A stretch of 27,260 nucleotides of DNA from Candidatus Methylomirabilia bacterium. GTDB lineage: Bacteria; Methylomirabilota; Methylomirabilia; Rokubacteriales; DASRDR01. Below the pieces are notes generated by a model. It was given only the letters and a program-made list of their open reading frames with translations. It was not told where the DNA came from and ran no database searches. Location of the stretch: assembly GCA_041497395.1 (NCBI GenBank), contig JBGQGN010000001.1:1-27260 (forward strand), read 5' to 3'. Below are positions 1,559 through 24,607 of the stretch, in pieces; position 1 is the stretch's first letter; each line of letters opens with the position of its first letter. The translations under genes and the position numbers were made by a program.

Positions 1559-2662
1559 ATGGTCACGGTCATCCACGAGGAGCGGGAAACAGAGATCGCC
1601 GCGGCGCGCGTCGTCGGCGAGGGTCTCTGGCTGTCGAGCGCCGACGTTCACCGGGCGACGGGCTGGACGCTCACGCCCGAGGGACTCTGCCGTGAGGGAG
1701 CCTGCGTCCCGGTGCCACGCGGCCGCGAGGCCGACGTCATCCGAGGCGACGCGGTCGACCTCGCCGCCTTCTGGCGGCACGTCGGCCATCCGGTGGTGCG
1801 CGATGGCACAGGGCAGGTCTGGGTGCTGGGCACCGGGGCCGCCGAGCGGGCCCGCGCTCTCCGGTCGCTCCTGGCGCCGGACTTCGCGCTTCCCGATCTC
1901 GACGGGCGCATGCACGCCCTGTCGGATCATCGCGGGACGAAGGTGCTGCTGGTGACGTGGGCCTCCTGGTGAGGCTGCCGCAGTGACCTGCCGGTCTGGC
2001 AGGCCCTCTACGAAGACCTGAAGGCCCGCCGCTTCACGGTCGTGGCCGTGGCCATGGATCGAGCCTCCGACGCGGCCCGGCCCTGGATCGAGGCCGCGAA
2101 GCCGAGCTATCCGTGCGTCATCGACCACGATCACCGGGTGGCCGAGCTCTACAACATGGTCAACGTGCCGCAGGCGGTCTGGATCGACGAGACCGGGCAC
2201 ATCGTGCGACCGACCGAGAGCGCCGGCGCCTACGAGGGATTCCGGTCCATGGATCGCACGACCCGGAAGGTCCCCGATGAGGTGGCCGCGATGACCAGCC
2301 GAGCCAAGCGCACCTACGTCGACGCCGTCCGCGACTGGGTGATCCAGGGTCGGTCGAGCGTCCACGTGTTCGGTCCGGAGCAAGCGACCGCCCATCTGAC
2401 CCTGCCGGACGAGAGCGTCGCCCGAGCGCACGCGCATTTTCGTCTGGGACAGCACCTGCTGAGACGAGGCCAGGAGTCCGCGGCGCAAGCCGAGTTCGAG
2501 GAAGCCCGCCGCCTGCACCCGGACTCGTGGAACATCTGGCGTCAGACGGCGGCGGTCGATGCGCGCGGGCTGGCGGCGGGCCCGGAGTTCTGGTCGCGCG
2601 TCGAGGCGCTCGGCAGCCGCCGGTACTACGCGCCCGTCGACATGGCGGGCATGCCGGACTGA
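1559..2662 (+). CDS. Probable selenoprotein, TlpA/ResA-like redoxin (AhpC/TSA fold) with WASW-U-GC active site, 367 aa
   Basis: ORFs 1559-1972 and 2042-2662 are in the same frame. Reading through TGA 1970-1972 gives APDFALPDLDGRMHALSDHRGTKVLLVTWASW-U-GCRSDLPVWQALYEDLKARRFTVVAVAMD, a continuous redoxin fold with TGA exactly at the first-Cys position. It also has NVP at the cis-Pro position and a TPR-like C-terminal helix. Confidence 0.85.
1971..2008 (+). promoter_or_regulatory. Candidate bacterial SECIS hairpin
   Basis: Stem CCTGCC (1987-1992) / GGCAGG (1998-2003) with loop GGTCT starting 21 nt after the TGA and beginning with G. Possible lower stem GAGG/CCTC. Fits the general bacterial SECIS geometry. 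Confidence 0.65.
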
Positions 2663-2759
2663 CGCGGGCGCGTCCGGCTCCCGGGGCGCATTCCCCCGGG
2701 CCTCCAGTCGAGCGTGCTGCGGGAGCCGATCACCGGGCGGCCGGCCGGGGGCGCTCCGG

Positions 2760-4115
2760 CTAGAACGACCGGATCAGACGCTCCACCCGCTCGTCGTGAG
2801 CCTGGAACGGGTCCTTGCAGAGGATCGTCTCGCGCTCGGGATCGTTCAGCTTGAGGTAGACCCAGTCCACCCGGTAATCCTTGCCCTTGAGGTTCGCCCG
2901 GCGGATGAACTCGCCCCGGAGCCGGGCGCGCGTCGTCTGGGGAGGCGTGTGCTTGGCCACCTCCACCTGCTCGTCGCGCGCCAGCCGATCGACGCGGTCG
3001 TTCCGTGCCAGCAGGTAGTAGACGCCCTTGAAGGGCCGGATGTCGTGGTACTGGAGGTCGATGAGGGACACGCGGGGGTCCCGCCAGGACAGCCGGTGCC
3101 GGGTCATGTAGTCCTCGATCACCTGACGCTTGATGACCCAGTCGACCTCACGGTCGCACTGGTTGGGGTCCGTCTCGAGCCGGGTGAGCATGTCGGTCCA
3201 GCGATCCAGGACGTCGCGCGTCACCGGGTCGGCGTCGACGTGCTGCGCGTAGGCGCGGCAGGCCTCCAGGTACTCCTTCTGGATCTCGAGGGCGGTCATG
3301 GTGCGCCCGTCCTTGAGCTTCACCGGCTCCCGGAGCCCAGGGTCGTGGGAGATGTCCCGGATGGCCTGGACCGGCGACTGGAGGCTGTAGTCCCGGTCGA
3401 AATAGCCGTCCTCGATCATGTCGAGGACCACGGCGGTGGTGCCGACCTTGAGGTAGGTCGCGACTTCCGACATGTTCGAGTCGCCGACGATCACGTGGAG
3501 CCGCCGGTACTTCTCCGCGTCCGCGTGGGGCTCGTCGCGCGTGTTGATGATGGAGCGGGACGAGGTGGTGGCGCCGGAGATCTCCTGGCAGATGTGCTGG
3601 GCGCGCTGCGACAGGCAATAGTGGAAGCCCCGCGGCGTCTGGAGGACCTTGCCGGCGCCCGCGAAGATCTGGCGGGTCACGAAGAACGGGATCAGCGCCT
3701 CGGCGAGCCGCTGGAACGAGACGTCGCGCGACACCAGGTAGTTCTCGTGGCAGCCGTACGAGTTGCCCGCCGAGTCCGTGTTGTTCTTGAAGAGGAGGAT
3801 GTTCCCCGAGATCCCGTCCTCACGGAGCCGCTTCTCCGCCTGGTGCAGGAGGTCCTCGACGATGCGCTCGCCGGCCTTGTCGTAGACGACCAGGTCCATC
3901 ACGTCGTCGCACTCCGGCGTGGCGTACTCCGGGTGGAAGCCGGTGTCGAGATAGAGCCGCGCCCCGTTCTCCAGGAAGACGTTGGCGTTGCGGGCTCCCG
4001 GAATGACCTTCTCGAAGAGGTAGCGGGCGACGTTGTCCGGGGAGAGCCGGCGCTGACCGTTCAGCGTGCAGGTCAGCCCGTACTCGTTCTCGAGGCCGAA
4101 GATGCGTCGCTTCAT
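2760..4115 (-). CDS. pafA: Pup--protein ligase PafA family (451 aa)
   Basis: [11 protein letters not shown] start, [25 protein letters not shown] (catalytic Asp region), [51 protein letters not shown] and CKDPF. ATGA overlap with the prcA stop. Confidence 0.92.
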
Positions 4116-4837
4116 GAGGTCCCCATGGGCCGGCCCCCCTCTGGCGGGTCGGGACGCCCGAGGATCGCGCGGAGCTCACCGTTGGCGACGCGCCGGAACT
4201 TCCGGCGCTCGCGCTTCTGGTCGAGCACCGCGACCTCGAGGTCGCGGTCCGTCAGCGTCTTGTTCTGCGCGACCGTCAGCGCACGGATCCCCAGCCGCAC
4301 CGCCTCGGCGAGGGGGAGGCCCTCTCGGTAGTGCTCCTTGAGGAAGCGGCGGATCTCCTCCGCCTGGCCGCCCATTGCCGCGTAGTTGCGCTCATCCTCG
4401 ATCGAGCCGTCGTAGAGGACATGGTACATCTCGTTCTTCCCGTTGGCGCCGTCGGCCACCTCGACGACCAGCACCTCGACCTCGAACGGCTTGAGCCCTT
4501 CGGTGAAGATGTTCCCGAGCGCCTGGGAATAGGCGTTGGCGAGCGCCTTCGCGGTCACGTCCTCGCGGTGGTACGAGTAGCCGCGGAGGTCGGCGTGCCG
4601 CACCCCCGCGATCCTGAGATTCTCGAACTCGTTGTACTTGCCGACCCCGGCGAAGGCGATCCGGTCGTAGATCTCGGAGATCTTGTGGAGCAGGGTGGAG
4701 GGATTCTCGGCGACCAGGAGCACGCCATCCTGGTACTCGAGGGCGACGATGGACCGGCCGCGGGCGATGCCCTTGCGGGCATACTCGGCCTTGTCCTTCA
4801 TCATCTGCTCGGGCGAGACGTAGTAGGGAAGGGGCAT
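4112..4837 (-). CDS. prcA: 20S proteasome alpha subunit (241 aa)
   Basis: [52 protein letters not shown] and RRKFRR are the actinobacterial-type PrcA signature. Confidence 0.96.
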
Positions 4838-4840
4838 GGA

Positions 4841-5671
4841 TCAGCGTCCCTGGCGCCGCGCCGCCACCACGGCCTCGCACTGGGCTCGGACCTCGGCCTC
4901 GGCGACCTCCTCGAACCCGGCGCGGGTGATCACCTTCACGGTCGGAAAGATCCCGTAGGTGAAATCGGGGCCGCCCGTCCCCACGTCTTCCTCCGCCGCG
5001 TCGACGAGTGCCTCGGCCGCCCAGCGGATCCCGTCGACACGCGACGCGCCCGCCCGGTACAGCTTCTTGAGCGTGGTGCGCGCGTCCTTGCCGCCCGACC
5101 CGGTCGCCGCGTAGTCGGTCTCCTCGTACCGGCCTCCCGTGACGTCGTAGTTGAAGATCCGTCCCTCGGCGCGGCGCAGGTCGTAGCCGGCGAAGATGGG
5201 CACGACCACGAGGCCCTGCATCGCCATCGGGAGGTTCATCCGGATCATCTGGCCGAGCTTGTTCGCCTTGCCTTCGAGCGACAGGCCGTCGCCCTCCACC
5301 TTCTCGTAGTGCTCGAGCTCCGTCTGGAACAGGCGGGCCATCTCGATCGCCGGCCCGGCCGCGCCGGCGATCGCGACCGCGGAGTACTCATCGGTCTTGT
5401 AGACCTTCTCGATCCGCCGGTGGGCGACCTGGTAGCCCTCGGTGGCCTGCCGGTCGCCGGCGACGATGACGCCGTCGGCGTACCGTAGCGCGAGGATCGT
5501 CGTCCCGGTCGGGACGCCCGGCAGGCCGTGGGGATCTGCATGGGGAGCCGCCCCGCTCACGCCGGGGCGCGAGACGAGCAAGTCCGGTGCCTCCTGGCGC
5601 AGGAGATCCACGAAGCTCCGGTTCACGTAGCGCCCGAAGAGACCTTGCCAGGACTCGTGCATGGGGGCCAT
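4841..5671 (-). CDS. prcB: 20S proteasome beta subunit precursor (276 aa; 56-aa propeptide, catalytic Thr57)
   Basis: Propeptide SFVDLLRQEAPDLL, cleavage site G|TTILALRY, AGDRQAT, IEKVY, LSLEGKANKL and ATGSGG. Confidence 0.96.
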   Translation of the reverse strand: MAPMHESWQGLFGRYVNRSFVDLLRQEAPDLLVSRPGVSGAAPHADPHGLPGVPTGTTILALRYADGVIVAGDRQATEGYQVAHRRIEKVYKTDEYSAVAIAGAAGPAIEMARLFQTELEHYEKVEGDGLSLEGKANKLGQMIRMNLPMAMQGLVVVPIFAGYDLRRAEGRIFNYDVTGGRYEETDYAATGSGGKDARTTLKKLYRAGASRVDGIRWAAEALVDAAEEDVGTGGPDFTYGIFPTVKVITRAGFEEVAEAEVRAQCEAVVAARRQGR

Positions 5672-5682
5672 CTGTAGGGGGG

Positions 5683-5688
5683 ATTATA
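5683..5688 (-). promoter_or_regulatory. -10 box TATAAT in front of prcB (internal promoter)
   Basis: Minus strand TATAAT-CCCCCCTACAG-ATG within the 68-bp dop-prcB gap. No SD. Confidence 0.6.
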
Positions 5689-5739
5689 CAACCGGGCTTG
5701 GCCGGGAGCCGCGCCTTCCGACGCCCCTGGTGTCCGGCC

Positions 5740-7236
5740 CTAGACGATGGTCGGCTTCGAGATGTTCTTGAGGAGATCCCGCGCGGTCGGCGACTGGTCG
5801 AACAGCCGGCGCACGAGGGCCTCGGTGCCCCGCAGCGGCTCGAGCATGAAGATCTTCTTCAGCGGCCCCTCCTTGAGGTCGAAGAGGACCGAGTCCCACG
5901 AGGCCGAGACGATGTCCTCGGAGTAGCGCTGGAGGCACATCCCCCGGAAGTAGGCCCGCGTGTCGCGCGGGGGGTCGTTGACCGCTCGCGCGATCTCCTC
6001 GTCGCTCGCGATTCGCTCGACCGCCTCGGACTGCTCGAGCTTGTAGTAGAGGCCCTTGCTCGGCCGGATGTCGTGGTACTGGAGGTCGATCATCGCCACC
6101 CGGGAATCCGTCCAGCCCACTCCGTGCTTGGCGCGGTAGCTCTCGAGGAGATCGAGCTTGATCACCCAGTCGAGCTCGCGGCTGAGCGACATCGGATCCT
6201 GGGCGAGCCGGTCCAGCACGTGCTCCCACCGCACGAGGACGTCCTTCGTCACGGGATCGAGCTCCCGGTCCCGGTAGTAGCGGTGGGCCAGCTCCAGGAA
6301 CTCCCGCTGGAGGTCGATGGCCGTCACGGTCCGCCCGTCGCGGAGGCGAAGCGTCGACCGGCAGGCGAGGTCGCGTGAGACCTGGCGGAAGGCCTGGACC
6401 GGACTGTCCAGCGAGAGGTCCCGGTCGATGAAGTCGTCCTCGATCATGGACAGGACGATCGCCGTGGTCCCGACCTTCAGGTAGTTCGCCACCTCCGACA
6501 TGTTGGCGTCGCCCACGATCACGTGGAGCCGGCGGTACTTCTCGGGATCGGCGTGCGGCTCGTCCCGGGTGTTGATGATGGGGCGGGAATGCATCGTCTC
6601 GAGGCCGACCTCCGTCTCGAGGAAGTCGGCACGCTGGGAGACCTGGTACTCGGTGTACTCGAGGTTGTTCTCCGACCCGACCTTGCCCGCGCCGGTGAAG
6701 ATCTGGCGCGTGACCAGGAAGGGCATCATGTACTGGACGATTCGCGTGAAGGGGCAGCGCCGGTCCATGAGGTAGTTCTCGTGGGTGCCGTAGCTGTTGC
6801 CCTTGGAGTCGGTGTTGTTCTTGTAGATGAGGATGCGCTGCTCGGGCGGGGAGGCCGCTTCCGCGCGCCGGCGGGCCAGGTCGAGGATTCGCTCGCCCGC
6901 CCGGTCCCAGACCACGAGGTCCCGCGGGTTCGTGCACTCCGGGGTCGAGTACTCGGGGTGGGCGTGGTCGACGTAGAACCGGGCCCCGTTCGGGAGGATC
7001 AGGTTGATGAGGCGCGACTCCTCCTTGGACGGGAGCTCCTTTTCCTCGGCGTACTCGAACCCCCGGGCGTCCCTGAGCGGGCTCTCGGCCTCGTAATCCC
7101 AGCGGATGCGTGCGGTCCGGTAGGTCTCGTAGGAGTTGATGAGGAGGAGGGAGGACAGGATCGGGTTGAAGTCCGCCTGGTTGCGGACCGTGATCCCGTA
7201 CTCGGTCTCGATCCCCATCACCTTCAGGATGGCCAT
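5740..7236 (-). CDS. dop: Depupylase/deamidase Dop (498 aa)
   Basis: KVMGIETEYGI, long Dop-loop region, [41 protein letters not shown] and MLEPLRGT. The DHAHPEYS and EPLRGT motifs separate it from PafA. Confidence 0.92.
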   Translation of the reverse strand: MAILKVMGIETEYGITVRNQADFNPILSSLLLINSYETYRTARIRWDYEAESPLRDARGFEYAEEKELPSKEESRLINLILPNGARFYVDHAHPEYSTPECTNPRDLVVWDRAGERILDLARRRAEAASPPEQRILIYKNNTDSKGNSYGTHENYLMDRRCPFTRIVQYMMPFLVTRQIFTGAGKVGSENNLEYTEYQVSQRADFLETEVGLETMHSRPIINTRDEPHADPEKYRRLHVIVGDANMSEVANYLKVGTTAIVLSMIEDDFIDRDLSLDSPVQAFRQVSRDLACRSTLRLRDGRTVTAIDLQREFLELAHRYYRDRELDPVTKDVLVRWEHVLDRLAQDPMSLSRELDWVIKLDLLESYRAKHGVGWTDSRVAMIDLQYHDIRPSKGLYYKLEQSEAVERIASDEEIARAVNDPPRDTRAYFRGMCLQRYSEDIVSASWDSVLFDLKEGPLKKIFMLEPLRGTEALVRRLFDQSPTARDLLKNISKPTIV

Positions 7237-7310
7237 GCCGTCCTCGCGCCGGTCCGCGTCACCCGTGCCTACCGGCGCCCTCCGGCGCCCCGGTGGGGCC
7301 GCGGCCGACA

Positions 7311-7349
7311 GAAAAGGGGTGAGGGGGCGACCCGCGCTCCCTCACCCCT
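7311..7349 (-). terminator. Intrinsic terminator after arc
   Basis: Perfect 11-bp stem AGGGGTGAGGG/CCCTCACCCCT (7315-7325 with 7339-7349) 5 nt after the arc stop, followed on the minus strand by a T-run (TTTTCTGT, counting the last stem base). Confidence 0.8.
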
Positions 7350-7354
7350 GCCGC

Positions 7355-9178
7355 CTACAGGTACTGGCCGGCAGGCTGACGCTCCACGGGCCGGTGCTTG
7401 TCCTTGCTCTCGCCCGTGAGCGGCTTGACGTAGACGATCCGCTCGCCCTTCTTCCCCGCGATCTTCGCCCAGTCGTCGGGGTTGGTCGTGTTGGGCAGGT
7501 CCTCGTTCTCCTTGAACTCCTCGCGCACGGCCGCCAGCAGGTCGTCGACCTTGACGCCCTTCTCGGCGGTCGCGATGTACCGCTTGAGCGCAAGCTTCTT
7601 GGCGCGACGCACGACCGACTCCATCATCGCGCCCGAGGCGAAGTCCTTGAAGTACAGGATCTCCTTGTCCCCGTTCGCGTAGGTGACCTCGAGGAAACGG
7701 TTCTCGTCCGCGACGGTGTACATGGCGTCGACCGCCATCTCGATGAGCCGCGTGATGGCCGCCGAGATGTCATCGCCGTGGGGCCCGAGCTCCTGCTGGT
7801 GCATCGGGATGTCCGGCGTGAGGTACTTCGCCATGATGTCGGCCGCCGCCTGACGGTCCGGCCGGTCGATCTTGATCTTCACGTCGAGCCGCCCGGGCCG
7901 AAGGATGGCGGGATCGATCAGGTCCTGCCGGTTGGAGGCGCCGATCACGATGACGTTCTTGAGCCCCTCGACCCCGTCGATCTCGGCCAGGAGCTGCGGC
8001 ACGATGGTCGTCTCGACGTCGGAGGAGATCCCCGAGCCGCGCGTACGGAAGAGGGCGTCCATCTCGTCGAAGAAGACGACGACGGGCACGTCCTCGGCGG
8101 CCTTCTCCTTGGCCTTGACGAAGATCTCGCGGATCTTCCGCTCCGTCTCGCCCACGTACTTGTTGAGGAGCTCGGGGCCCTTGATGTTCATGAAGAAGCC
8201 CTTGATCTTCTCCCCGCGCTTCTCCGAGACCTTCTCCGCCAGGTTGTTCGCGACCGCCTTGGCGATCATCGTCTTGCCGCACCCCGGCGGCCCGTAGAGG
8301 AGGACGCCCTTGGGCGGCGCGAGCTTGTGCTCGCGGTAGTAGTCGGCGTAGAGGTACGGGAGCTCCACCGCGTCCCGGATCGCCTCGATCTGGGACGTGA
8401 GGCCGCCGATGTCCTCGTACTGGATGTCCGGGACCTCCTCGAGAGCCAGGTCCTCGACCTCGCTCTTCGGCAGCTTCTCCAGGAGGTAGCCCGACTTCGA
8501 GTCCATGAGGAGGTGATCGCCGACCTTGAGCTTTGCGGGACGGAGCGGCTCCGCGATGACCGCGACCTTCTCCTCGTCCGCCCGCACCGTGACGACCGCG
8601 CGCGCCTCGTCCAGGGTCTCCTTCATGATGACGACCTCGCCCTGGATCTCGTAGCCCGCCGCCTCGATGACGTTCAGCCCCTCGTTGAGGACGAGCTCCT
8701 GCCCCGGCTTGATCGATTCCCTGGCGATGGACGGGTGGAGGTTCACCTTGACCTTGCGCCCGCTCGACAGGATGTTCACCGTGCCGTCGTCGTTCAGCGA
8801 GAGGAACACGCCGTAGCTGGAGGGTGGCGCGCAGAGCTTGTCGACTTCCTCCTTCAGGGAGGAGATCTGCTCGCGCGCCTCGTAGAGCGTGTTCACGAGC
8901 TTCTCGTTCTGGTTGAAGGCCTGGACCAGCTGCCGGTTCGCTTCCCGCAGCTTGTTCTCCAGGACGACGAAGTCCTTGGGAATCTCCTCGAGCTTCTTCC
9001 GGAGATGCGCGACCTCCGTCTCCATGGCCCGGGCGTGGGCCTGGAGATCCTGGATCTGGATCTCGTACTCCGTCAGGCGACGGCGGTAGGCGGATTCCGT
9101 CATTGGCAGGAATTTTGACAGACCCTTGACACCCTCGGAGTCACGGGGAGGATTCGCCTTCTTTTCGAACTCTTTCAT
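7355..9178 (-). CDS. arc: Proteasome-associated AAA+ ATPase ARC/Mpa (607 aa)
   Basis: Coiled coil ([25 protein letters not shown]), tandem OB interdomains, Walker A GPPGCGKT, Walker B VFFDEMD, pore loop KYVGE, SRH ([16 protein letters not shown]), [13 protein letters not shown] and C-terminal GQYL. The start is set at ATG 9178 after GGGAGG rather than the track start at 9553; ATG 9103 is an alternative. Confidence 0.96.
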
Positions 9179-9265
9179 GGCCTCCCGTCCCTCTCGGCGA
9201 GGACCGCGACCGCGCCGCGTCGGCCGGGCCCGGCGCGGGCGACTCTGTCCCCGCCAGCTTGAGCA

Positions 9266-9295
9266 ACTATAGGCGGCGCCGGAAAAAAAAGTCAA
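9266..9295 (-). promoter_or_regulatory. sigma70-like promoter of arc
   Basis: TTGACT (9295-9290), 18-bp spacer containing a T-run, TATAGT (9271-9266). Confidence 0.7.
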
Positions 9296-9366
9296 GTTGT
9301 GGAGCCATTCCCGCCCCAGTTCGGTCGCGCGGCTGCCATCGCGCTGCCTCCCGACGCCCGAAACCG

Positions 9367-9382
9367 TGCAACGCCGGTGCCA
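9367..9382 (-). promoter_or_regulatory. sigma54 (RpoN) -24/-12 promoter candidate facing arc
   Basis: Minus strand TGGCAC-C-GGCG-TTGCA versus consensus TGGCACG-N4-TTGCW. Exact GG-N10-GC spacing, one mismatch, intergenic. Confidence 0.6.
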
Positions 9383-9447
9383 GCGACGAGTTGGGTGCCG
9401 GTCGAATGGCGCCCGTGCGAGACGGGTCTGCGGAGCGGAGACGTCTC

Positions 9448-9453
9448 TATAAT
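9448..9453 (+). promoter_or_regulatory. -10 box TATAAT, probable leaderless promoter of the SBP gene
   Basis: TATAAT-GGACGCCA-ATG(9462), abutted upstream by the perfect palindrome GAGACGTCTC (9438-9447). Confidence 0.6.
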
Positions 9454-9461
9454 GGACGCCA

Positions 9462-11081
9462 ATGCGCCCCAGGGCTGCTCGACGGCGTCGGTGTCCCCGG
9501 AGTCCGGCGCGTGCGGCATTCCTTGTCAGCTTCATCGTGCTGCTCGCCGTCACCCGCGTCGCCGGTGCGGCGCCGGCCGGCGAGCTTCACGTCGGCGTGC
9601 CGCGCGTTCCTGCGAGTCTGGATCCGGCGGAGGCCACGGCGTCGTCCCAGCTCCTGGCGATGCGCCTTCTCTACCAGGGATTGGTCGCATTCGGCGAGCG
9701 AGGCGACATCGAGCCCGCTCTTGCGACGGCGTGGACCGTCTCCCGCGACGGGCTGGTCTGGACCTTCCGGCTCCGCCAGGACGTCCAGCTTCACGACGGC
9801 ACCCCGCTCGGGCCCGATGAGGTCGTCGCGACCCTCGCCGAGCGGATCTCCGCCGACGAGCCCCCGGATGGCGCGCCCACCTGGGTCCGCCCCTTCCGCG
9901 GCGCGGGGCGGGTCGTCCGGGAGGTGCGACGCGGTGAGGGCGCGTCGGTCCAGATCGTCGTGGGGCAGCCGTACGCGCCGCTGCTCGCGCTCCTGGCCCA
10001 TCCCGGCCTCGCAATCGCCGTCGCGCGGCCCAGCGGCCCGCGGGTCGGGAGCGGGCCCTACCGGGCCGTCGAGCTCACACCCGATCGGCTCGCGCTGGAA
10101 GCGGCGCCGGTCTGGCGAGGGGACCCGCCCCAGAGCGCCCGCCTGATCCTGCACGCGGTCGCGGATGACGTGGCCGCCCTCGCCGGGCTCGCTCCCGGCG
10201 GTCCTCTCCATGCGGCGCTGCTCGCCGCCCCCCCGGCCTGGGCCGCGGTGGGCCTCCAGGTCATGTCCGGTCCGACCCGGCGGGTCGGGCTCCTGGCGCT
10301 TCGGACCGACCGGGGCCTCACCAGCCGCAAGACGGTGCGCCAGGCCGTGGCGCTCGCCCTCGATCCCGCGCTCCTCCGTCCGGCGCTCGGTCAGTGGGCG
10401 GTGCCGCACGCCGCCTGGCTGCCGCCCGGCGCGTGGGCAGCGCGCGACGCCAGCACCCTCCTCTTCGACCCCACGCGAGCGAGGCGCCTGCTGGCGCAGG
10501 TCGCTCCGGTCGACCCGACGCTGACCCTCCTCGCGTCGGACCAGGTCTCCGGGCCCGAGGCTGCGGGCATCGCCGACGCGATCCGGGTCTCGCTGGGCGC
10601 CGTGGGCTTCCGGGTACAGGTGCGGCTGGAGCCACCGGACGCGGCGGAGACCGCCGCGCGGCAGGGCGCGGCGGAGCTGACGCTCCACGAGGAGACGCTC
10701 GAGGTGAACGACCCCGACATCTTTTTCCGGCGGCTCCTGGCCACCGACGGAGCCACGCCCGGGAGCGCGACCAACGTCGCCTTCCTCCGGAGCCCGCTGG
10801 TCGATGGCATGCTCTCGCGCGCGGGCCAACTCGGGTTCCGGCCCGAACGCTTCCGGCTCTATCAGCGGCTCCAGGGGCTCCTCGGCGAGGAGCTGCCGTA
10901 CGTGCCGCTCTACGTCCGGCTCCAGTGGATGGTGGCTCGACCCGAAGTGCGGGGCCTGAACCTGGACTCTGGTGGGCTGCATCGCCTCGAGCGCATGGGG
11001 CTCGAACCTCCGCCCGTGCCCGCGCCGCCGCGAGCTCCACTGAACCCGCTCTCGGGGATGCCGCCGCCCGCACGTCCGTGA
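9462..11081 (+). CDS. ABC transporter substrate-binding protein, family 5 (DppA/OppA/NikA-like)
   Basis: Signal peptide (Arg-rich n-region, [14 protein letters not shown]|A), [59 protein letters not shown] and ELPYVPLY. Pro-rich C-terminal tail. Confidence 0.88.
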
Positions 11082-11222
11082 GATTGGCCACGGCTGACAG
11101 CAGTCCGCCAGTCCGGCGCAGGCCTCGTTGACGCCCCCGCCCCGGCGCGTCCCGCGGGCTCGGGTGTCGTCGCCGGCCCGGTCCCGGCGGAGCGCCCACG
11201 GACGAAGGGCTCGCGGCGTGGT

Positions 11223-11251
11223 TTGCCGGGGGCCAGAGCCGCGGCTACAAT
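11223..11251 (+). promoter_or_regulatory. sigma70-like promoter of thioesterase (possibly also the downstream yebC-ruv run)
   Basis: TTGCCG (11223-11228), 17 bp, TACAAT (11246-11251). Confidence 0.6.
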
Positions 11252-11306
11252 GAGTCGGCCTCCCACACGACGGGCCACGACGGGCCAAACCACGGAGGAG
11301 TCGCTG

Positions 11307-12287
11307 GTGCCCACGGTTCGTGAGACCGTCGCCGAGATGGTCCAGTACGTCTTCCCTCAGTACGCGGGCGCACCGGGCCAGATCTACGGCGGGCGGATGA
11401 TGGATTGGATCGCCACCGCGGGAACCCTGGCCGCGTCCCGCGTGGCTCGCGGTCCGGTGACGGTGGGCGCGATGGATGAGATCGACTTCCTTCACCCCGT
11501 GCGGGTGGGGGAGATCGCGATCCTCCGGGCCCGGGTGGAGTACGTGGGGCGCACGTCGCTCGAGGTCGGGGTCCGGGTCTATTCGGAGAACGCGGCGACC
11601 GGGGAGCGCCACGTGACGCTCTCGTCGCACATGGTGTTCGTCGCCATCGACGAGGCGGTTCAGCCGCGACCGGTCGCGGCGCGCATCGTTCCCGCCGACC
11701 CCGGGGAGGTCGGCGTCATCGAGGCCGCGCGGGCCCGGCGCGAGGCGCGTCGGGCGCGGCTCGCCTCGCGGGCCGAGCGGGCGCGCGAGGTGAAAGACGA
11801 GACGGAGGGCTTCCACTGGCGATTCGAGCAGCATCGGTTCGTGTTCCCGGAGGACGCGCTGCACGGGACACTGATGTTCGCGGGACGCCTGCTCCTCACG
11901 GTGGACGAGGTCGCCGCGATCCTCGCGGTGCGGTATGCGCGGGCTCCCCTCGCGACGGCGTCGATGGACGCGCTGGAGTTCTACGCGCCGATCCGGGTGG
12001 GCGACATGCTCACGCTCCGAGGCGCCCTGACGCGCGTGGGGACGCGGTCGATGGAAGTGGAGATCCAGGTGCTCGCCGAGGTGCCGTTCACGGGTGACAT
12101 CCGGCACACCTGCACGGCGTACCTGACGTTCGTCAAGCTGCGCGGGGCGGGCGGGCCGCTTCCACCGCTAGAGGCGGCGACCGCGGTCGAGCAGCAGGAG
12201 CGGGACGCGGCGGACAAGCGCCAGGCGGCGCGTGTGGAGCGCGTGCACGCGCTCAAGGAGAGCCTCGAGCGCGAGCCCGCCTGGTAA
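11307..12287 (+). CDS. Double-hotdog acyl-CoA thioesterase-like protein (326 aa)
   Basis: Two tandem hotdog repeats (VFP..G.IYGG.MMDW...DEIDFLHPVRVGE..GRTSLEVGV and VFPED..MFAG.LL..D...DALEFYAPIRVGD..GTRSMEVEI). GTG start at 11307 after SD GGAGGAG. Confidence 0.85.
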   Translation: MPTVRETVAEMVQYVFPQYAGAPGQIYGGRMMDWIATAGTLAASRVARGPVTVGAMDEIDFLHPVRVGEIAILRARVEYVGRTSLEVGVRVYSENAATGERHVTLSSHMVFVAIDEAVQPRPVAARIVPADPGEVGVIEAARARREARRARLASRAERAREVKDETEGFHWRFEQHRFVFPEDALHGTLMFAGRLLLTVDEVAAILAVRYARAPLATASMDALEFYAPIRVGDMLTLRGALTRVGTRSMEVEIQVLAEVPFTGDIRHTCTAYLTFVKLRGAGGPLPPLEAATAVEQQERDAADKRQAARVERVHALKESLEREPAW

Positions 12288-12370: not shown

Positions 12371-13120
12371 ATGTCCGGTCACTCGAAGTGGTCCCAGATC
12401 AAGCGCAAGAAGGCGAAGACGGACCAGCACCGGGGCAAGGTCTTTTCCAAGCTCGTCCGGGAGATCACGACCGCGGCGCGGGCCGGCGGGGATCCGAAGA
12501 TGAACATGCGACTCAAGACCGCGATCGAGGAGGCGAAGGCGGTCAACATGCCCGCCGACACCCTCAAGCGCGCCATCCAGAAGGGGACGGGCGAGCTGCC
12601 GGGCGAGACCTACGAGGAGATCACCTACGAGGGGTACGGGCCGGGCGGGGTCGCCGTCATGGTCAAGGTGCTGACCGACAACAAGAACCGCACCGCGCCG
12701 GAGATCCGGCACACGTTCACGAAGTTCAGCGGCAACCTCGGCGAGGTGGGCTCGGTCGGCTGGATGTTCGACCGCAAGGGGATCATCCAGGTCGAGGCCG
12801 CCCGCGTAGACGAGGACGAGCTCCTGGGGCTGGCTCTGGACGCCGGCGCGGCCGATCTCCGGCGCGCGGACTCGTTCTTCGAGATCACGGCGACGCCGCA
12901 CGATCTCGAGGAGGTCCGGCGGGCGCTGGAGGGGCGCGGGGTGCCGATCCAGTCCGCGGAGGTGACCTACGTGCCGCAGTCGACGGTCCGCCTCGAGGGC
13001 AAGGACGCGCAGCAGGTGCTGCGGCTCGTCGAGGGACTGGAGGAGCTCGACGACGTGCAACACGTGTACGCGAACTTCGACATCCCCGACGAGGTGCTGG
13101 AGGCGCAGGGAGCCGCTTGA
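12371..13120 (+). CDS. yebC: YebC/PmpR family protein
   Basis: MSGHSKWSQIK, YEGYGPGGVAV, TDNKNRT and LEELDDVQHVYAN. Confidence 0.95.
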   Translation: MSGHSKWSQIKRKKAKTDQHRGKVFSKLVREITTAARAGGDPKMNMRLKTAIEEAKAVNMPADTLKRAIQKGTGELPGETYEEITYEGYGPGGVAVMVKVLTDNKNRTAPEIRHTFTKFSGNLGEVGSVGWMFDRKGIIQVEAARVDEDELLGLALDAGAADLRRADSFFEITATPHDLEEVRRALEGRGVPIQSAEVTYVPQSTVRLEGKDAQQVLRLVEGLEELDDVQHVYANFDIPDEVLEAQGAA

Positions 13121-13125
13121 GGGGG

Positions 13126-13647
13126 ATGGACGACGCCTCCATCCCGCCGCGCCCCGCGCCGCGCGCCGTCGGGTTCGATCCGGGACTGGCCGAGACGGGC
13201 TACGCGGCGCTCGAGGGCGGGCGCCGGGTTCCCACCGTGCTCGGGACCGGGGTCATCCGGACGAGCGCCCGGGACCCGCTGGAGGTGCGGCTCGAGGCGC
13301 TGTTCGACGGAGCCCGGGACGTGCTCGAGCGGTTCGCGCCCGATCTCGTGGTCATCGAGGACATCTTCAGTGCGCCGTCGATTCCGCGCACCGCCATCCT
13401 GATGGGTCATGCGCGGGCCGTCGTTTGCCTCGCCGGCCGGCGGCAGCGGGTCCTGCTCGTCTCGGTGGCGCCGGCGGAGGTCAAGCGCGCGGTGACGGCC
13501 TCGGGGGCCGCGCCCAAGGCGCAGGTCGCGCGGGCCATGCAGGCCCTCCTGGCCCTGGCCGCCCCGCCGCGACCGAGCCACGTCGCCGACGCGCTCGCGC
13601 TCGCCTACACCGGCCTGTCGCGGGTTCGCGGGCTCGGCGGACGATGA
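13126..13647 (+). CDS. ruvC: Holliday junction resolvase RuvC (173 aa)
   Basis: 3' part of ORF 12388-13647 from ATG 13126: VGFDPGLAETGY, VVIEDIF, EVKRAVT, APKAQV and PSHVADALALA. Confidence 0.92.
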   Translation: MDDASIPPRPAPRAVGFDPGLAETGYAALEGGRRVPTVLGTGVIRTSARDPLEVRLEALFDGARDVLERFAPDLVVIEDIFSAPSIPRTAILMGHARAVVCLAGRRQRVLLVSVAPAEVKRAVTASGAAPKAQVARAMQALLALAAPPRPSHVADALALAYTGLSRVRGLGGR

Positions 13648-14288
13648 TTGCCTCGCTCCGCGGGCGGCTGCGCCGCCGATTGGAGGGCCGCGTGATCCTC
13701 GAGTCGGCCGGCGTGGGGTACGAGGTCGTGCTGCCGCCCGTCGTCGCCCGCGGACTCGAGGACCTGATGGCGGGCGACGGCGCCGACGCCGCCGAGCTCG
13801 AGCTCGTGATCTACTACCACGCCACGCGTGACCAGCCCCGGCCCGTCCTGATCGGGTTCGCCAAGGACGTGGAGCGCGAGTTCTTCGAGCGGCTCATCAC
13901 CGTCAAGGACGTGGGGCCCTTGGTCGCCGCGCGGGCGCTGGTCGAGCCGATCGCCGACATCGCGGACGCGATCGTCCGGAAGGACGAGCGCTTCCTCCGC
14001 CGGCTGCCCGGGATCGGGCCCCAGAAGTGCCGCAACATCGTCGCACAGCTGGAGGGCAAAGTGGCCAAGTACGCGCTTCTCCCGCGGGAGGAGGCGCCGC
14101 CGCTGCCGCCGCGCGAGGAGGGCGACGGGGTGCGCGTGCTGGTCCGCGACATCCTGGTCCGGCAGATGGGGCTCAGGCCGGGAGAGGCCGACCAGGCGAT
14201 CCGCGAGGCCCTGGCGCGGCGGCCGGACATCGACGCGCCCGAGGCGCTCTTCGAGGAGATCTACCGCGCCCGCCGGGGGTCGCCATGA
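13644..14288 (+). CDS. ruvA: Holliday junction branch migration protein RuvA (214 aa, divergent)
   Basis: MIASLRG, AGVGYEV, FERLITVKDVGP, LPGIGPQKC and a C-terminal helical domain. ATGA overlap with ruvC, and lies between ruvC and ruvB. Confidence 0.85.
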   Translation: MIASLRGRLRRRLEGRVILESAGVGYEVVLPPVVARGLEDLMAGDGADAAELELVIYYHATRDQPRPVLIGFAKDVEREFFERLITVKDVGPLVAARALVEPIADIADAIVRKDERFLRRLPGIGPQKCRNIVAQLEGKVAKYALLPREEAPPLPPREEGDGVRVLVRDILVRQMGLRPGEADQAIREALARRPDIDAPEALFEEIYRARRGSP

Positions 14289-14397
14289 CGCCGACGAGGG
14301 CGCCGCTGGGGCGAGCCCGCGACAGGACCCGTGTCGGCAGGATGGTCAGGGGGCGGCAGGATCCGTCGGGGTCGGACCGGGGCGGAGGAGGGGCGCG

Positions 14398-15420
14398 GTG
14401 AGCGAGAACCTGCTGAGCGGGACCCCGCTGGCCGACGAGGCGCCGTTCGAGCGCGCGCTGCGCCCGCAGCGCCTGGACGAGTACATCGGCCAGCGCGAGG
14501 CGGTGGAGAGCCTGCGCGTCTCGGTGGAGGCAGCGCGGCAGCGCGGAGAGTGCCTGGACCACGTGCTCCTCTACGGGCCGCCGGGTCTCGGCAAGACGAC
14601 GCTCGCCATCATCCTGGCCAACGAGATGGCGAGCGGGCTCAAGAGCACGTCGGGGCCGGCGCTCGAGCGCGGCGACGATCTGATGGGGGTTCTGACGAGC
14701 CTCGAGCCCCGCGACGTGCTTTTCGTGGATGAGATCCACCGGCTGCCGCGCGTGGTCGAGGAGCTCTTCTACCCGGCCATGGAGGATTTCGAGGTCAACT
14801 TCGTCATCGAGCGCGGGATGCACGCCCGGACCATGCGGATCCCGCTCAAGCCGTTCACCCTGGTCGGCGCCACGACGCGGCCTGGCATGCTGAGCGCGCC
14901 GTTGCGCGAGCGATTCGGGATCTTCCACCACCTGGACTTCTACGACGACGAGGAGCTGGCGCGGATCGTCGTCCGGTCGGCGGGCATCCTCGGTCTCTCC
15001 ATCGAGCCGGGGGGAGCCGCCGAGATCGCGCGGCGAGCCCGCGGCACCCCGCGCATCGCCAACCGCCTTCTCCGGCGCGTCCGGGACTACGCGCAGGTCA
15101 AGGGCGACGGCCGCATCAGCCCCGGCGTCGCCGACGCCTCCCTCACCATGGAAGGTGTCGACACGCGCGGCCTGGACCGGCTGGACCGGCGCTTTCTCCA
15201 GGCCATCGTCGAGCACTACGGGGGTGGCCCCGTGGGCCTCGAGGCCATCGCCGCGACGATCAACGACGACGCGGAGACGCTGGCGGAGCTGGTCGAGCCA
15301 TATCTCCTCAAGATCGGACTGGTGGTGCGGACCCCGAGCGGCCGGCGCGCGACGCCTGCCGCCTACCGGCACCTCGGCCACCAGGGGGGCGACGGCCCTC
15401 TCCAGCTCTCCCTCGAGTAG
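14398..15420 (+). CDS. ruvB: Holliday junction helicase RuvB (340 aa)
   Basis: [71 protein letters not shown] and RTPSGR. Confidence 0.97.
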   Translation: MSENLLSGTPLADEAPFERALRPQRLDEYIGQREAVESLRVSVEAARQRGECLDHVLLYGPPGLGKTTLAIILANEMASGLKSTSGPALERGDDLMGVLTSLEPRDVLFVDEIHRLPRVVEELFYPAMEDFEVNFVIERGMHARTMRIPLKPFTLVGATTRPGMLSAPLRERFGIFHHLDFYDDEELARIVVRSAGILGLSIEPGGAAEIARRARGTPRIANRLLRRVRDYAQVKGDGRISPGVADASLTMEGVDTRGLDRLDRRFLQAIVEHYGGGPVGLEAIAATINDDAETLAELVEPYLLKIGLVVRTPSGRRATPAAYRHLGHQGGDGPLQLSLE

Positions 15421-15429
15421 GCGGAGACG

Positions 15430-15657
15430 ATGGCGGGCGTCGGCCGGATGCTGGTGCTGCTCGGGGTCGTGCTGGTCGTCGCCGGCGGCGTGCTCTGGCT
15501 GGGTGGCGCCGCCGGCAGCAAGGTTCCCTTCCTCGGCCGGCTGCCGGGCGACATTCACTTCGCGCGAGGCAACTGGTCGTTCTACTTCCCGCTGACCACC
15601 TCGATCCTCCTGAGCATCGTGCTCACGCTGGTCCTGGCGCTTCTCTCCCGCCGATGA
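15430..15657 (+). CDS. Small membrane protein, DUF2905-like (75 aa)
   Basis: Two hydrophobic segments around LGRLPGDI and FYFPLTTSILLSIVL. Typical position after ruvB. SD GGAG. Confidence 0.8.
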   Translation: MAGVGRMLVLLGVVLVVAGGVLWLGGAAGSKVPFLGRLPGDIHFARGNWSFYFPLTTSILLSIVLTLVLALLSRR

Positions 15658-16826
15658 TCGAACGCGTGACCGGGACGGCTCGCCGCCCCTCCGCCGGGCG
15701 GGCGATCGCGGCTGTCGTCGTGGGGCTCGCGTGCGCGGCGGGGATGGCGAGCCCCGCGCGGGCGCTCGAGCCGATCCGGATCGCGCTCGCGGACGGTGCT
15801 CGTCATGTGGAGATCGGCGTGGCCGAGGCCGTGACGGTGCTCGACCCGGCCGCCGGGCGGGCGCTCTTCAGCCTGTCCGGTCCGCGCATCCTGCGCGTGG
15901 TGCCGTCGGGTCCGGGGCTGGACGTGGTCGGGGCCCGGCGGGTGGATCTGCCTCGCCTCCGCATCGAAGTGCGACGCGGCCCCCTCCGGGTGGGCACGCG
16001 AGACTACATCGGAGCGCTCGAGATATGGCGCCAGGCGGACGGGCTCCTCCTGGTGAACGAGCTGCCCATGGAGGAATACGTCGCCGGAACGGTGCGCGGT
16101 GAGGCCTCCGAGCGGTGGCCCGTGGAGGCCCTGCGGGCGCTGGCGGTGGTGGCGCGCACCTATGCCGTCTTCCAGCAGAGCCGCGCCGCGGGGAAGGCGT
16201 TCCACGTCGTCGCGAGCAACCAGGACCAGAACTTCGCCGGCTGGGCGGCGGAGGGGTCGCCCGCGCGGGAGGCCGCCCGGACGACGGCCGGCCAAGCGCT
16301 GACCTGGCAGGGTCGGGTGTTCCCGGCCTTCTACCACTCGGACTCCGGCGGTTTCACCGAGGCGGCGCAGAGCGTCTTCTCGGGGGACGGTGTCCCCCCG
16401 CTCGAGGGCGTCCGCGACGAGTTCTCCATGGAGTCGCCGAACTACACGTGGACCATGACCCTCCCGCTCACCGTGATCGGTGAGCGGCTCCGCCGGGGAG
16501 GGCTCGAAGTGGGGCAGGTGACCCGGCTCACGGTGCTCGAGCGCAGCCCCTCCTTCCGCGTCGCGCGGCTCGCCGTCGAGCACTCTCGTGGGACAGCCAC
16601 GCTCCGGGGGGCCGACTTCCGGCGGCTGATCGGGTACGATGCGTTGAAGAGCACGCTCTTCGTCCCGGTCGCCCAGGACGGTGTGGTGCGGTTCGAGGGG
16701 CGCGGCTGGGGGCATGGCGTGGGCCTGTCCCAGTTCGGCGCCAAGGGCATGGCCGACCGCGGATACGCGTATCCTCAGATCCTCGAGCACTACTATCCGG
16801 GCACCGCCTTGGCGACCCTGCGGTGA
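15654..16826 (+). CDS. SpoIID/LytB-domain protein (lytic transglycosylase-like)
   Basis: Signal peptide, NELPMEEYVAG..E, EALRALAVVARTYA, AFYHS.SGG.TE, LKSTLF and GRGWGHGVGLSQFGAKGMA..G...QILEHYYPG. Confidence 0.88.
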   Translation: MIERVTGTARRPSAGRAIAAVVVGLACAAGMASPARALEPIRIALADGARHVEIGVAEAVTVLDPAAGRALFSLSGPRILRVVPSGPGLDVVGARRVDLPRLRIEVRRGPLRVGTRDYIGALEIWRQADGLLLVNELPMEEYVAGTVRGEASERWPVEALRALAVVARTYAVFQQSRAAGKAFHVVASNQDQNFAGWAAEGSPAREAARTTAGQALTWQGRVFPAFYHSDSGGFTEAAQSVFSGDGVPPLEGVRDEFSMESPNYTWTMTLPLTVIGERLRRGGLEVGQVTRLTVLERSPSFRVARLAVEHSRGTATLRGADFRRLIGYDALKSTLFVPVAQDGVVRFEGRGWGHGVGLSQFGAKGMADRGYAYPQILEHYYPGTALATLR

Positions 16827-16863
16827 GAGGGGGCCGGAGGGCGACTGACAAGCCCCAGATCCC

Positions 16864-17199
16864 ATGAGCGAGATCACCTGGAGCGACTTCGAGCGAGTGG
16901 ACATGCGGGTTGGCACCGTCGTGCGGGCCGAGCCCTTCCCGGAGGCTCGGAAGCCGGCGTACAAGCTCTGGATCGATCTCGGCCCGCTCGGGGAGCGGCG
17001 GTCGAGCGCTCAGATCACCGACCGGTACCGGCCCGAGGACCTGCTCGGGCGCCAGGTTGTGTGCGTCGTCAACTTCCCGCCGAAGCGGATCGGGCCCTTC
17101 GTCTCCGAGGTGCTCGTGCTAGGGGCCTACGTCGACGGCCACACGGTCGTCCTCCTCCGTCCCGACCAGGACATGGAGCGGGGAAGCCGCATTGGCTAG
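16864..17199 (+). CDS. csaA: CsaA-type tRNA-binding / secretion chaperone (OB fold, 111 aa)
   Basis: ITWSDFERVDMRVGTV, FPEARKPAYKLWIDLG, SSAQIT..Y and VVNFPPKRIG.FVSEVLVLG. Confidence 0.87.
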   Translation: MSEITWSDFERVDMRVGTVVRAEPFPEARKPAYKLWIDLGPLGERRSSAQITDRYRPEDLLGRQVVCVVNFPPKRIGPFVSEVLVLGAYVDGHTVVLLRPDQDMERGSRIG

Positions 17200-18259
17200 C
17201 GCGGCCCCGGTCGCCGGCGACCTCGCCCAGTTCGACTACGCGCTCCCCCCGGACCGGATCGCCCAGGAGCCGGCGGAGCCGCGCGACGCGGCGCGCCTCC
17301 TCGTTCTCGACCAGCGGTCCGACGCGCTCGGGGATGCCCGGGTGAGCGACCTCCCGCGCTTCCTGCGGGCGGGGGACTGCCTCGTGGTGAACGACACGCG
17401 GGTCCTGCCCGCCCGGCTCCTCGGGCGAATCGAGGGTACCGAGCGCGACGTCGAGATGCTGCTGCTCCACCCGGTCGGTGACGCGTGGGCCGCGCTCCTC
17501 CGTCCGGCCCGGCGCTGTCCGGTCGGGACGACGGTTGTCCTGGCCGACGGGGCTGCCCGGGCGACCGTGACCGCCCGGGAGGAGCTGGGGCGGGCGCGCG
17601 TCCGGCTCGACGGGACCGGTCCGGTCGAGACGTTCCTCGAGGTCCATGGGCTGCCGCCGCTCCCGCCGTACATCCACCGGTACCGGAAGCCCGGCGGCGA
17701 GGACTGGGCGCGCTACCAGACCGTCTACGCGGCCCGGCCCGGCGCCGTGGCCGCGCCGACGGCAGGCCTTCACTTCACCCCGGCGCTGCTCGCCGCCCTC
17801 GGGGCGCGGGGCATCGAGCTCCACCGGGTGACGCTCCACGTCGGCCCGGGCACCTTCCGGCCCGTCCGTGCCGAGCGGGTTGCCGAGCATCGGGTGGAGG
17901 CGGAGCGGTTCGAGGTCTCCGAGGCCACGGCGACGGCGGTCGGCCGCGCCCGGCGCGAGGGCCGCCGCGTGGTGGCGGTGGGGACGACGACCGTCCGGGT
18001 GCTCGAGACCGTGGCTGCCCCGGATGGCTGCGTGGCCCCGGGAGCCGGCTGGACCGACCTCACCATCGTGCCCGGACACCGGTTCCGCGCGGTCGACGCT
18101 CTCCTCACGAACTTCCACCTGCCACGCTCGTCGCTGCTCCTCCTGGTTTCGGCCTTCGCCGGGCGCGAGCGGGTGCTCGACGCCTACGCTCACGCCATCG
18201 CCGCCGGCTACCGGTTCTACAGCTACGGCGACGCCATGCTGATCACGGATGGGGGCTAG
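17192..18259 (+). CDS. queA: S-adenosylmethionine:tRNA ribosyltransferase-isomerase
   Basis: FDYALPPDRIAQ, LVVNDTRVLPARL, PLPPYI, YQTVYA..GAVAAPTAGLHFT, TLHVGPGTF, AVGTT and TNFHLPRS...YRFYSYGDAM. TTG start overlaps the csaA stop. Confidence 0.95.
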   Translation: MASAAPVAGDLAQFDYALPPDRIAQEPAEPRDAARLLVLDQRSDALGDARVSDLPRFLRAGDCLVVNDTRVLPARLLGRIEGTERDVEMLLLHPVGDAWAALLRPARRCPVGTTVVLADGAARATVTAREELGRARVRLDGTGPVETFLEVHGLPPLPPYIHRYRKPGGEDWARYQTVYAARPGAVAAPTAGLHFTPALLAALGARGIELHRVTLHVGPGTFRPVRAERVAEHRVEAERFEVSEATATAVGRARREGRRVVAVGTTTVRVLETVAAPDGCVAPGAGWTDLTIVPGHRFRAVDALLTNFHLPRSSLLLLVSAFAGRERVLDAYAHAIAAGYRFYSYGDAMLITDGG

Positions 18260-18262
18260 CCC

Positions 18263-19438
18263 TTGACCCCATCCTTCGAGCTGCTGGCGCAGGATGGCGA
18301 GGCGCGACGGGGCCGACTCCACACCCCGCACGGCACCGTCGCCACGCCCGCCTTCATGCCGGTCGGGACGCTGGGAACGGTCAAGAGCCTCACCCCCGCG
18401 GATCTCCGGGAGATCGGGGCCGAGATCGTCCTCGCCAACACCTACCACCTGTTCCTGCGGCCCGGTCCCGCGCTGATCGCCGAGCTCGGGGGTCTCCACC
18501 GCTTCATGGCGTGGGATGGGCCCATCCTCACCGACTCGGGTGGGTTCCAGGTGTGGAGCCTCGCCGCGCTCCGGACCATCCGTGAGGAAGGGGTGCGCTT
18601 CCGCTCGCACCTCGACGGCGGCACGGAGCATCTGCTCACGCCCGAGCTGGTCGTCGAGGTACAACAGGCGCTCGGGGTCGACGTGCTGCATCCCCTCGAC
18701 GAGTGCCTGCCTTACCCGGCGTCGCGGGACGCGGCCGAAGCGTCCCTGGGGCGCACGCTCCGCTGGGCCCGACGGGCGCACGCGGCGCACGCGGCCGGGC
18801 GGCGTCCGGGCCAGGCGTGCTTCGGCATCGTCCAGGGCGGAATGTACCCGGATCTTCGGCGGGCGGCCGTGACGGAGACCTGCGCGCTCGGGTTCGACGG
18901 CTACGCGCTCGGAGGGTTCGCGGTCGGCGAGCCCCGGGGGCTCATGCGCGAGCTGGTCGGGCTCACGACCGCTGCCCTCCCCGCCGACCGGCCCCGGTAC
19001 CTGATGGGGGTCGGCCGTCCAGGGGACCTGGTGGACGCGGTGGCAGCCGGGGTGGACATGTTCGACTGCGTGCTGCCGACCCGGCACGCCCGGACTGGCC
19101 AGGCGTTCACCAGCCGGGGTCTGGTGGTCATCCGCCACGCCGCGCATGCCCGGGCCCCCGAGCCGCTCGACCCGTCATGCCCGTGCTACGCGTGCCGGCA
19201 CTTCTCGCGCGCCTACCTCCGGCACCTCTTCCTGGCGCGGGAGCTCACCGTGTACCGGCTCCTCACGCTCCACAACCTGACATACTATCTCGGCTTGATG
19301 GCCGGCCTGCGCGCCGCCATCTCGGCCGGCACCTTCGCCGCGCTCCGACAGGCCGTGCTCGAGGCCTATGGCTCGGACGACGCCGAGCCGGTGACCGCGC
19401 CGGGTGGCGAACCGCCCGGGCAAGAGGAGGCATCGTGA
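18263..19438 (+). CDS. tgt: Bacterial tRNA-guanine transglycosylase (preQ1 type)
   Basis: TPAFMPVGT, LANTYHLFLRPG, LTDSGGFQV, DEC, GIVQGG, GG.AVGE, YLMGVG, DMFDCVLPTR and Zn ligands CPCYAC...HN. Confidence 0.96.
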   Translation: MTPSFELLAQDGEARRGRLHTPHGTVATPAFMPVGTLGTVKSLTPADLREIGAEIVLANTYHLFLRPGPALIAELGGLHRFMAWDGPILTDSGGFQVWSLAALRTIREEGVRFRSHLDGGTEHLLTPELVVEVQQALGVDVLHPLDECLPYPASRDAAEASLGRTLRWARRAHAAHAAGRRPGQACFGIVQGGMYPDLRRAAVTETCALGFDGYALGGFAVGEPRGLMRELVGLTTAALPADRPRYLMGVGRPGDLVDAVAAGVDMFDCVLPTRHARTGQAFTSRGLVVIRHAAHARAPEPLDPSCPCYACRHFSRAYLRHLFLARELTVYRLLTLHNLTYYLGLMAGLRAAISAGTFAALRQAVLEAYGSDDAEPVTAPGGEPPGQEEAS

Positions 19439-19773: not shown

Positions 19774-19784
19774 CGGGAGCGACC

Positions 19785-21353: not shown

Positions 21354-21381
21354 GGCGGCGGGGACAAGAGGGCGGCACGCG

Positions 21382-22329: not shown

Positions 22330-22424
22330 ACTGCTGGGCTACCCGGCGGCCGTCGGGCCGCTTCCCGGGCCGGGGCGCGTAGCGCCCCAGCGAGTGCCCC
22401 GTGGGCGAGCCGGGACGCGCGCAC

Positions 22425-24578: not shown

Positions 24579-24607
24579 GGCGCGCCGGCCGCCCGGCCGT
24601 CCCTGCC

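Follow-up and report, generated by a model that had tools for sequence, protein, structure and literature searches.

Where does a bacterium keep the gene for its protein tag when the locus that encodes the enzymes and the protease of pupylation lacks it? The question is raised by a stretch of 27,260 nucleotides (positions 1 to 27,260 of contig JBGQGN010000001.1, assembly GCA_041497395.1), hereafter the window, from a Candidatus Methylomirabilia bacterium. On its minus strand five genes of a Pup-proteasome system follow one another in the order arc-dop-prcB-prcA-pafA, and pup, the gene for the modifier, is not among them. Reviews of described systems place pup directly upstream of prcB and treat the gene order as rigid (PMC3511204), and they state that a gene of the PafA family invariably adjoins pup (PMC2588565). 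The original prediction, made from the sequence of the window, offered three solutions: relocation of a separately regulated tag gene, a divergent tag not yet described, or a machinery that works independently of a tag. Relocation stood, whereas the other two proved unneeded and unsupported: very probably the window contains that half of a canonical Pup-proteasome system which comprises the enzymes and the protease, and the tag is supplied from other sites of the same genome, by two pup genes of canonical type. The host, a soil or sediment bacterium, belongs to Candidatus Rokubacteria (Methylomirabilota), and the non-actinobacterial lineage that the prediction had considered probable is thereby confirmed. 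Its genome is a metagenome-assembled genome (MAG) of 2.94 Mb in 335 contigs, 79.6% complete and with an estimated contamination of 0.36%.

The machinery itself is complete. All five genes are intact, and each scores above its own cut-off on the corresponding NCBIfam equivalog model (Table 1). Pfam searches match Pup_ligase in dop (E 7.6e-186) and in pafA, Proteasome in prcA and prcB, and, in arc, AAA together with the two proteasomal-ATPase OB domains (Prot_ATP_ID_OB_N/C). The products of dop and pafA are distinct paralogues, each falling below the cut-off on the NCBIfam model of the other, and the two genes are the only members of the Pup_ligase family in the host genome. The downstream part of the cluster is tightly packed: prcA starts 3 nt past prcB, and pafA begins 4 nt before prcA ends. 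The alignment of ARC with Mpa of Mycobacterium tuberculosis (7px9; E 1.8e-204) takes in the coiled coil and extends to the C-terminal GQYL, a docking motif that is conserved. Within the coiled coil a 14-residue stretch, aligned with NSKLMETLKEARQQ of Mpa, is kept. The original prediction had described both the five intact genes and the retained coiled-coil pattern, and on both counts the models and the alignment bear it out.

The position at which pup would be sought is a short spacer. The dop stop codon (5742-5740) and the prcB ATG (5671-5669) are 68 bp apart, and a TATAAT is found at 5688-5683 of the minus strand, 11 nt ahead of the ATG; gap and motif had both been read correctly beforehand. 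The Pfam Pup model (PF05639), run at E<=10 over all contigs of the host genome with a cut-off of 27 bits, has zero matches on the contig of the window. A pattern scan across the genome, in all six frames, for ends of the form GG[QE] or [RK][ST]G[QE] yielded no plausible tag frame inside the window, in agreement with the earlier statement that the locus holds no open reading frame (ORF) for a tag. The lone pattern match on this contig, a basic frame of 41 aa with low GC3 that is distant from the cluster, was rejected as a plausible tag. In the window, pup is found neither between dop and prcB nor beside a gene of the PafA family.

Could pup have been deleted from the dop-prcB junction by misassembly or by some other MAG artefact? 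The draft state of the genome speaks for such a loss, and nothing further does; the explanation is practically negligible. Junctions were compared in the 80 best Dop-related loci, taken with flanks of up to 4 kb, and a Pup-like sequence is present in none of them (0/80). Nearly all of these loci come from Candidatus Rokubacteria, Rokuibacteriota or Methylomirabilota, and the handful filed under other lineage labels are probably mis-binned. They were assembled independently, on contigs that include some of 0.4-4 Mb, and in most cases 0-100 nt separate the dop stop from the prcB start, the two often abutting directly. Because these loci of independent MAGs share the pup-less junction, the gap is not an assembly artefact, and the misassembled deletion that the original prediction had put forward as a possibility runs counter to the same evidence. 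Furthermore, 14 DNA sequencing runs from different samples contain 62-93% of the sampled words of positions 4800-6600. The missing in-locus pup is a feature of gene order and not of the composition of the system.

The spacer has a conserved feature of its own. Its TATAAT is shared by the 15 closest related loci, and in other related loci TAGAAT, TACAAT or TAAAAT is found 8-9 nt ahead of the prcB ATG. A promoter scan of 2500-9700 found no -35 box for the spacer TATAAT. The motif suggests a candidate internal -10 box from which a near-leaderless prcB-prcA-pafA mRNA might arise. Some near-identical relatives (Dop 95-100% identical) carry insertions between dop and prcB, upstream of the conserved TATAAT: approximately 226 bp at L017:5498-5791, where the spacer grows to approximately 297 bp, and approximately 590 bp in L019 and L024, at about 5498-6083. 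These may be small mobile or repeat elements. The larger spacers were considered as pup sites and dismissed, no Pup-like ORF being present inside them.

The tag is found elsewhere. Over the whole host genome the Pup model has exactly two matches, at 80.6 and 77.3 bits, both off the contig of the window. One gene, at positions 1838-2038 of contig C318, encodes a protein of 66 aa with the C-terminus QRGGQ (PupQ); the other, at positions 4301-4507 of contig C219, encodes a protein of 68 aa that ends in QRGGE (PupE). Both pass the NCBIfam equivalog-domain model TIGR03687 (60.2 and 64.1 bits; cut-off 41.45), and the two are 57% identical to each other. PupQ matches the Pup chains in solved structures of Mpa-Pup (M. 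tuberculosis) and of PafA-Pup (E 6e-14), and the half that binds PafA, Dop and Mpa is nearly identical: LLDEIDDILEENAEEFVKSYVQRGGQ in PupQ versus LLDEIDDVLEENAEDFVRAYVQKGGQ in M. tuberculosis Pup. The PupQ gene is packed between dcd and a gene for an FmdB zinc-ribbon protein, with gaps of 9 nt (dcd-pup) and 5 nt (pup-fmdB), and the neighbours of the PupE gene encode a dynamin-like GTPase, an MFS transporter and a sigma-54 activator. The discovery of a canonical pup at another site in the genome had been named in advance as the outcome that would turn the observation into one of gene order: canonical pups are present on other contigs, and the finding therefore reduces to a rearrangement.

It might still be argued that the machinery operates on a divergent, undescribed tag, or without any tag, and that the canonical pups are irrelevant to it. 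The absence of an operon-encoded tag in the window and in the 80 relatives is compatible with this proposal. So is the situation in two further Rokubacteriales genomes, G029 (100% complete) and G031 (92%). Both contain pup (locus L010 in the former, where fmdB adjoins; G031:C39:32254-32448 in the latter), and neither yields a match to the Pup_ligase family, a PafA by protein query or a 20S beta subunit above the cut-off, which hints at an uncoupling of Pup from its enzymes. If real, this absence would mean that Pup persists without its enzymes; however, it may reflect assembly gaps, as PafA fragments at contig ends are seen in G027 and G007. Against the proposal it counts that the host genome possesses canonical Pups whose enzyme- and ARC-binding half scarcely differs from that of M. 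tuberculosis, that PafA, Dop and ARC are equivalog-level orthologues, and that the pattern scan of the host genome detected no other small acidic ORF with either type of tag-like end besides the two Pups. A divergent tag or a tagless machinery is therefore highly improbable: the host has an ordinary Pup-proteasome system, the gene order of which has changed throughout the lineage.

A separate concern is that both pup contigs have been mis-binned and that the organism's own tag gene is still unseen. The contigs are indeed short (C219, 6.7 kb; C318, 4.4 kb) and belong to a highly fragmented bin. Nevertheless, in GC content (0.705 and 0.706, compared with 0.704 for the window) as in tetranucleotide distance both contigs are typical members of the bin, whose estimated contamination is low. 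The genes flanking the pups are syntenic with those of same-genus genomes and 85-100% identical to them. In particular, the neighbours of pup on C318 are 97-100% identical to those in the same-genus genome G012 (L110). When relatives were searched with Pup_ligase, the Dop of G012 ranked among the top-scoring Dops, just under that of the window itself. Mis-binning of both contigs is very unlikely, and it would leave the conclusion unchanged, as an unlinked pup is present in every well-assembled relative.

Several considerations weigh against the proposal that the window and the two distant pups form one system. The placement of the pup contigs and the operon in one cell rests on binning, composition and synteny, without physical linkage, and the genome is a draft, 79.6% complete and divided into 335 contigs. 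The binding of the two Pups to the enzymes and to ARC is inferred from sequence conservation. The system is known here from its genes, and pupylation and Pup-dependent degradation are attributed to it by homology. Finally, the evolutionary scenario outlined below, in which pup was duplicated and its operon copy then lost, is based on a single draft genome with short contigs (G049).

Relatives show how widespread the arrangement is. The Pup model matches 40 of 41 relatives and, in a set sampled across the phylum, 72 of 81 genomes. When the positions of Pup and Pup_ligase matches are compared, pup is never located at the operon in Rokubacteriales. Where both are found on the same contig, the distance between them amounts to 1.2 Mb in G003, 300 kb in G036 and 48 kb in G047, the last being a single-contig genome from a sister order. 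The rearrangement is conserved across the class and is not peculiar to the host genome.

The unlinked genes fall into three types. Type 1, with the N-terminus MAEQQKKK, is the main paralogue, and its locus comprises a treble-clef zinc-finger gene, dcd, pup, fmdB and a further gene that was given an OFOR-like label. All of it is preserved throughout the genus and the family, and the synteny from zinc-finger gene to fmdB is maintained in most relatives. The pup-fmdB pair occurs at every type-1 locus examined except L015, which is truncated by a contig end, and extends to the sister order and to other families. The C-terminal residue of type-1 Pup alternates between Q and E even between genomes of the same genus. 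Type 2, represented in the host by the PupE of C219, is found in eight genomes of the family and has one of two sets of neighbours. The first consists of a dynamin-like GTPase with an MFS transporter, the second of a DUF6062 protein with a Na/H exchanger and a universal stress protein. The first set adjoins the type-2 gene in the host genome and in G007. In the loci with the second set (L121:3995-7039, L118:2309-5474, L116, L124 and L114) the DUF6062 protein, which has a coiled-coil tail, is encoded 7-10 nt past the type-2 Pup and is followed by the Na/H exchanger and then by the universal stress protein.

Type 3 ends in GGE; in G001:C17 (L097) and G005:C92 (L102) a third PafA paralogue is located at a distance of 6-10 kb, and the type-3 Pup of G001 is frameshifted. 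A similar type-3 Pup is carried by G016:C289 (L117), and no third PafA was detected in that genome; in the host genome no type-3 Pup was found. Together, type-3 Pup and the third PafA could be a second tagging branch. A different pattern is displayed by G075, from another family of the class. One of its pups lies directly downstream of an arc-like gene (L137:4001-4352), and a pup-fmdB pair is found 1.6 kb upstream of another arc N-terminus (L138:3995-6323): in this genome the linkage of pup is with the ATPase and not with dop and prcB.

How did pup come to be separated from its operon? A clue is provided by G049, of a sister family, which has the canonical order dop-pup-prcB-prcA-pafA on one contig and, on a different contig, a further pup. 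As this genome keeps an operon pup alongside an unlinked copy, the simplest account is an early duplication of pup in the class, probably followed by loss of the operon copy in most lineages. For most of the class Methylomirabilia the separation of pup from the operon is ancestral.

The comparison with known systems underlines that the parts are conventional and their arrangement is not. The same six components are present, at the equivalog level, as in the actinobacterial system typified by M. tuberculosis (mpa ... dop-pup-prcB-prcA ... pafA). The two share the order arc-dop-prcB-prcA-pafA of enzyme and protease genes, with arc as a separate unit, and differ in that the host is a member of the Rokubacteria/Methylomirabilota and its pups occupy unlinked loci, one in a dcd-pup-fmdB context and the other that of a second paralogue, instead of the interval between dop and prcB. 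Organisms with both PupQ and PupE genes are already known (Barandun et al. 2012, PMC3511204). The host resembles them in encoding one Pup ending in GGQ and one in GGE; unlike in those organisms, neither copy is located in the pupylation locus and the terminal residue of the main paralogue flips within the genus. UBact systems, described in Nitrospirae, Verrucomicrobia and other Gram-negative phyla, are likewise non-actinobacterial and combine a proteasome with enzymes of the PafA/Dop family. In contrast to these, the tag of the host is a bona fide Pup that exceeds the cut-offs of both PF05639 and TIGR03687, and the pattern scan produced no plausible candidate in this genome for a UBact-type tag with a [RK][ST]G[QE] end, a UBact HMM (hidden Markov model) not having been run.

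The working of the system can be sketched by homology with that of mycobacteria (PMC3511204). Dop would deamidate the C-terminal glutamine of PupQ, whereas PupE would be ligation-ready as encoded. PafA would couple the C-terminal glutamate of Pup to lysines of substrates, the coiled coil of ARC would capture Pup, and the GQYL tail would dock ARC on the PrcAB 20S core, into which the substrate would be fed. Dop is also expected to depupylate.

Homologues of Dop and PafA in candidate division NC10 have received only a passing mention (PMC7947786), and the search found no paper in the library that names both Rokubacteria and pupylation. The exception in gene order thus appears undescribed in print, although what it affects is a known system, rearranged. 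By the textbook rule pup resides in the pupylation locus; an entire class of uncultured bacteria from soil and sediment departs from it and keeps pup in a conserved dcd-pup-fmdB cluster, often accompanied by additional paralogues. For genome annotation it follows that an operon without pup is no evidence for the absence of Pup. The lineage also offers a natural case for the regulation of tag supply apart from the enzymes. A bolder proposal is that tag supply is in fact regulated separately from the pupylation enzymes, that the FmdB zinc-ribbon protein takes part in pupylation as a novel accessory or regulatory factor, and that the extra Pup paralogues of types 2 and 3 serve separate fates or orthogonal tagging branches. 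The role for FmdB is proposed because the pup-fmdB pair is class-wide and its genes nearly abut. Taken as a whole the proposal is speculative and rather unlikely to be correct.

The remaining features of the window concern arc and the flanking genes. The start of arc was placed at the ATG at 9178, ahead of which is a GGGAGG Shine-Dalgarno sequence; on this ground a longer ORF of 732 aa (7355-9553), beginning with a GTG at 9553, was discarded. A sigma-70-like match precedes arc and is the sole promoter-like match within 2500-9700. Downstream of the gene a hairpin folds at -36.5 kcal/mol (z -3.5), is equalled by 0/200 shuffles and has a T run behind it; it may act as a terminator and so set arc apart as a separate transcription unit. 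Because arc possesses both its own promoter match and this strong terminator-like hairpin, it is probably monocistronic.

Table 1. Features of the window, with their positions, strand and the evidence or context for each.
Feature	Position	Strand	Evidence or context
arc/mpa, proteasomal AAA+ ATPase, 607 aa	7355-9178	minus	TIGR03689, 748.8 bits (cut-off 504.75)
dop, Pup deamidase/depupylase, 498 aa	5740-7236	minus	TIGR03688, 636.1 bits (cut-off 492.3)
dop-prcB spacer, 68 bp, without pup	5672-5739	minus	sequence; no Pup HMM match on contig
prcB, 20S proteasome beta subunit with propeptide, 276 aa	4841-5671	minus	TIGR03690, 301.7 bits (cut-off 191.9)
prcA, 20S proteasome alpha subunit, 241 aa	4112-4837	minus	TIGR03691, 333.2 bits (cut-off 139)
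pafA, Pup ligase, 451 aa	2760-4115	minus	TIGR03686, 630.7 bits (cut-off 551.3)
Sigma-70-like promoter candidate for arc, TTGACT-N18-TATAGT	9266-9295	minus	consensus match, 10/12 positions
Intrinsic-terminator-like hairpin 3' of arc	7308-7348	minus	GGGGTGAGGG...CCCTCACCCC then TTTTCTGT
MFS transporter	158-1474	minus	near cluster
SBP_bac_5 solute-binding protein	9462-11081		near cluster
Double 4HBT thioesterase	11223-12287		near cluster
yebC/TACO1-family	12371-13120	plus	housekeeping
ruvB	14398-15420	plus	housekeeping
queA	17192-18259	plus	housekeeping
tgt	18263-19438	plus	housekeeping
secD	19710-21353	plus	housekeeping

Three minus-strand ORFs, at 1544-2518, 132-1538 and 9447-12107, were rejected as non-coding: they have no Pfam match and were passed over by the GC3/GC2 coding-frame filter, which chose other frames across these stretches, and those frames did give Pfam matches. 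From 12371 to 27010 the plus strand carries housekeeping genes that are unrelated to the Pup-proteasome cluster.

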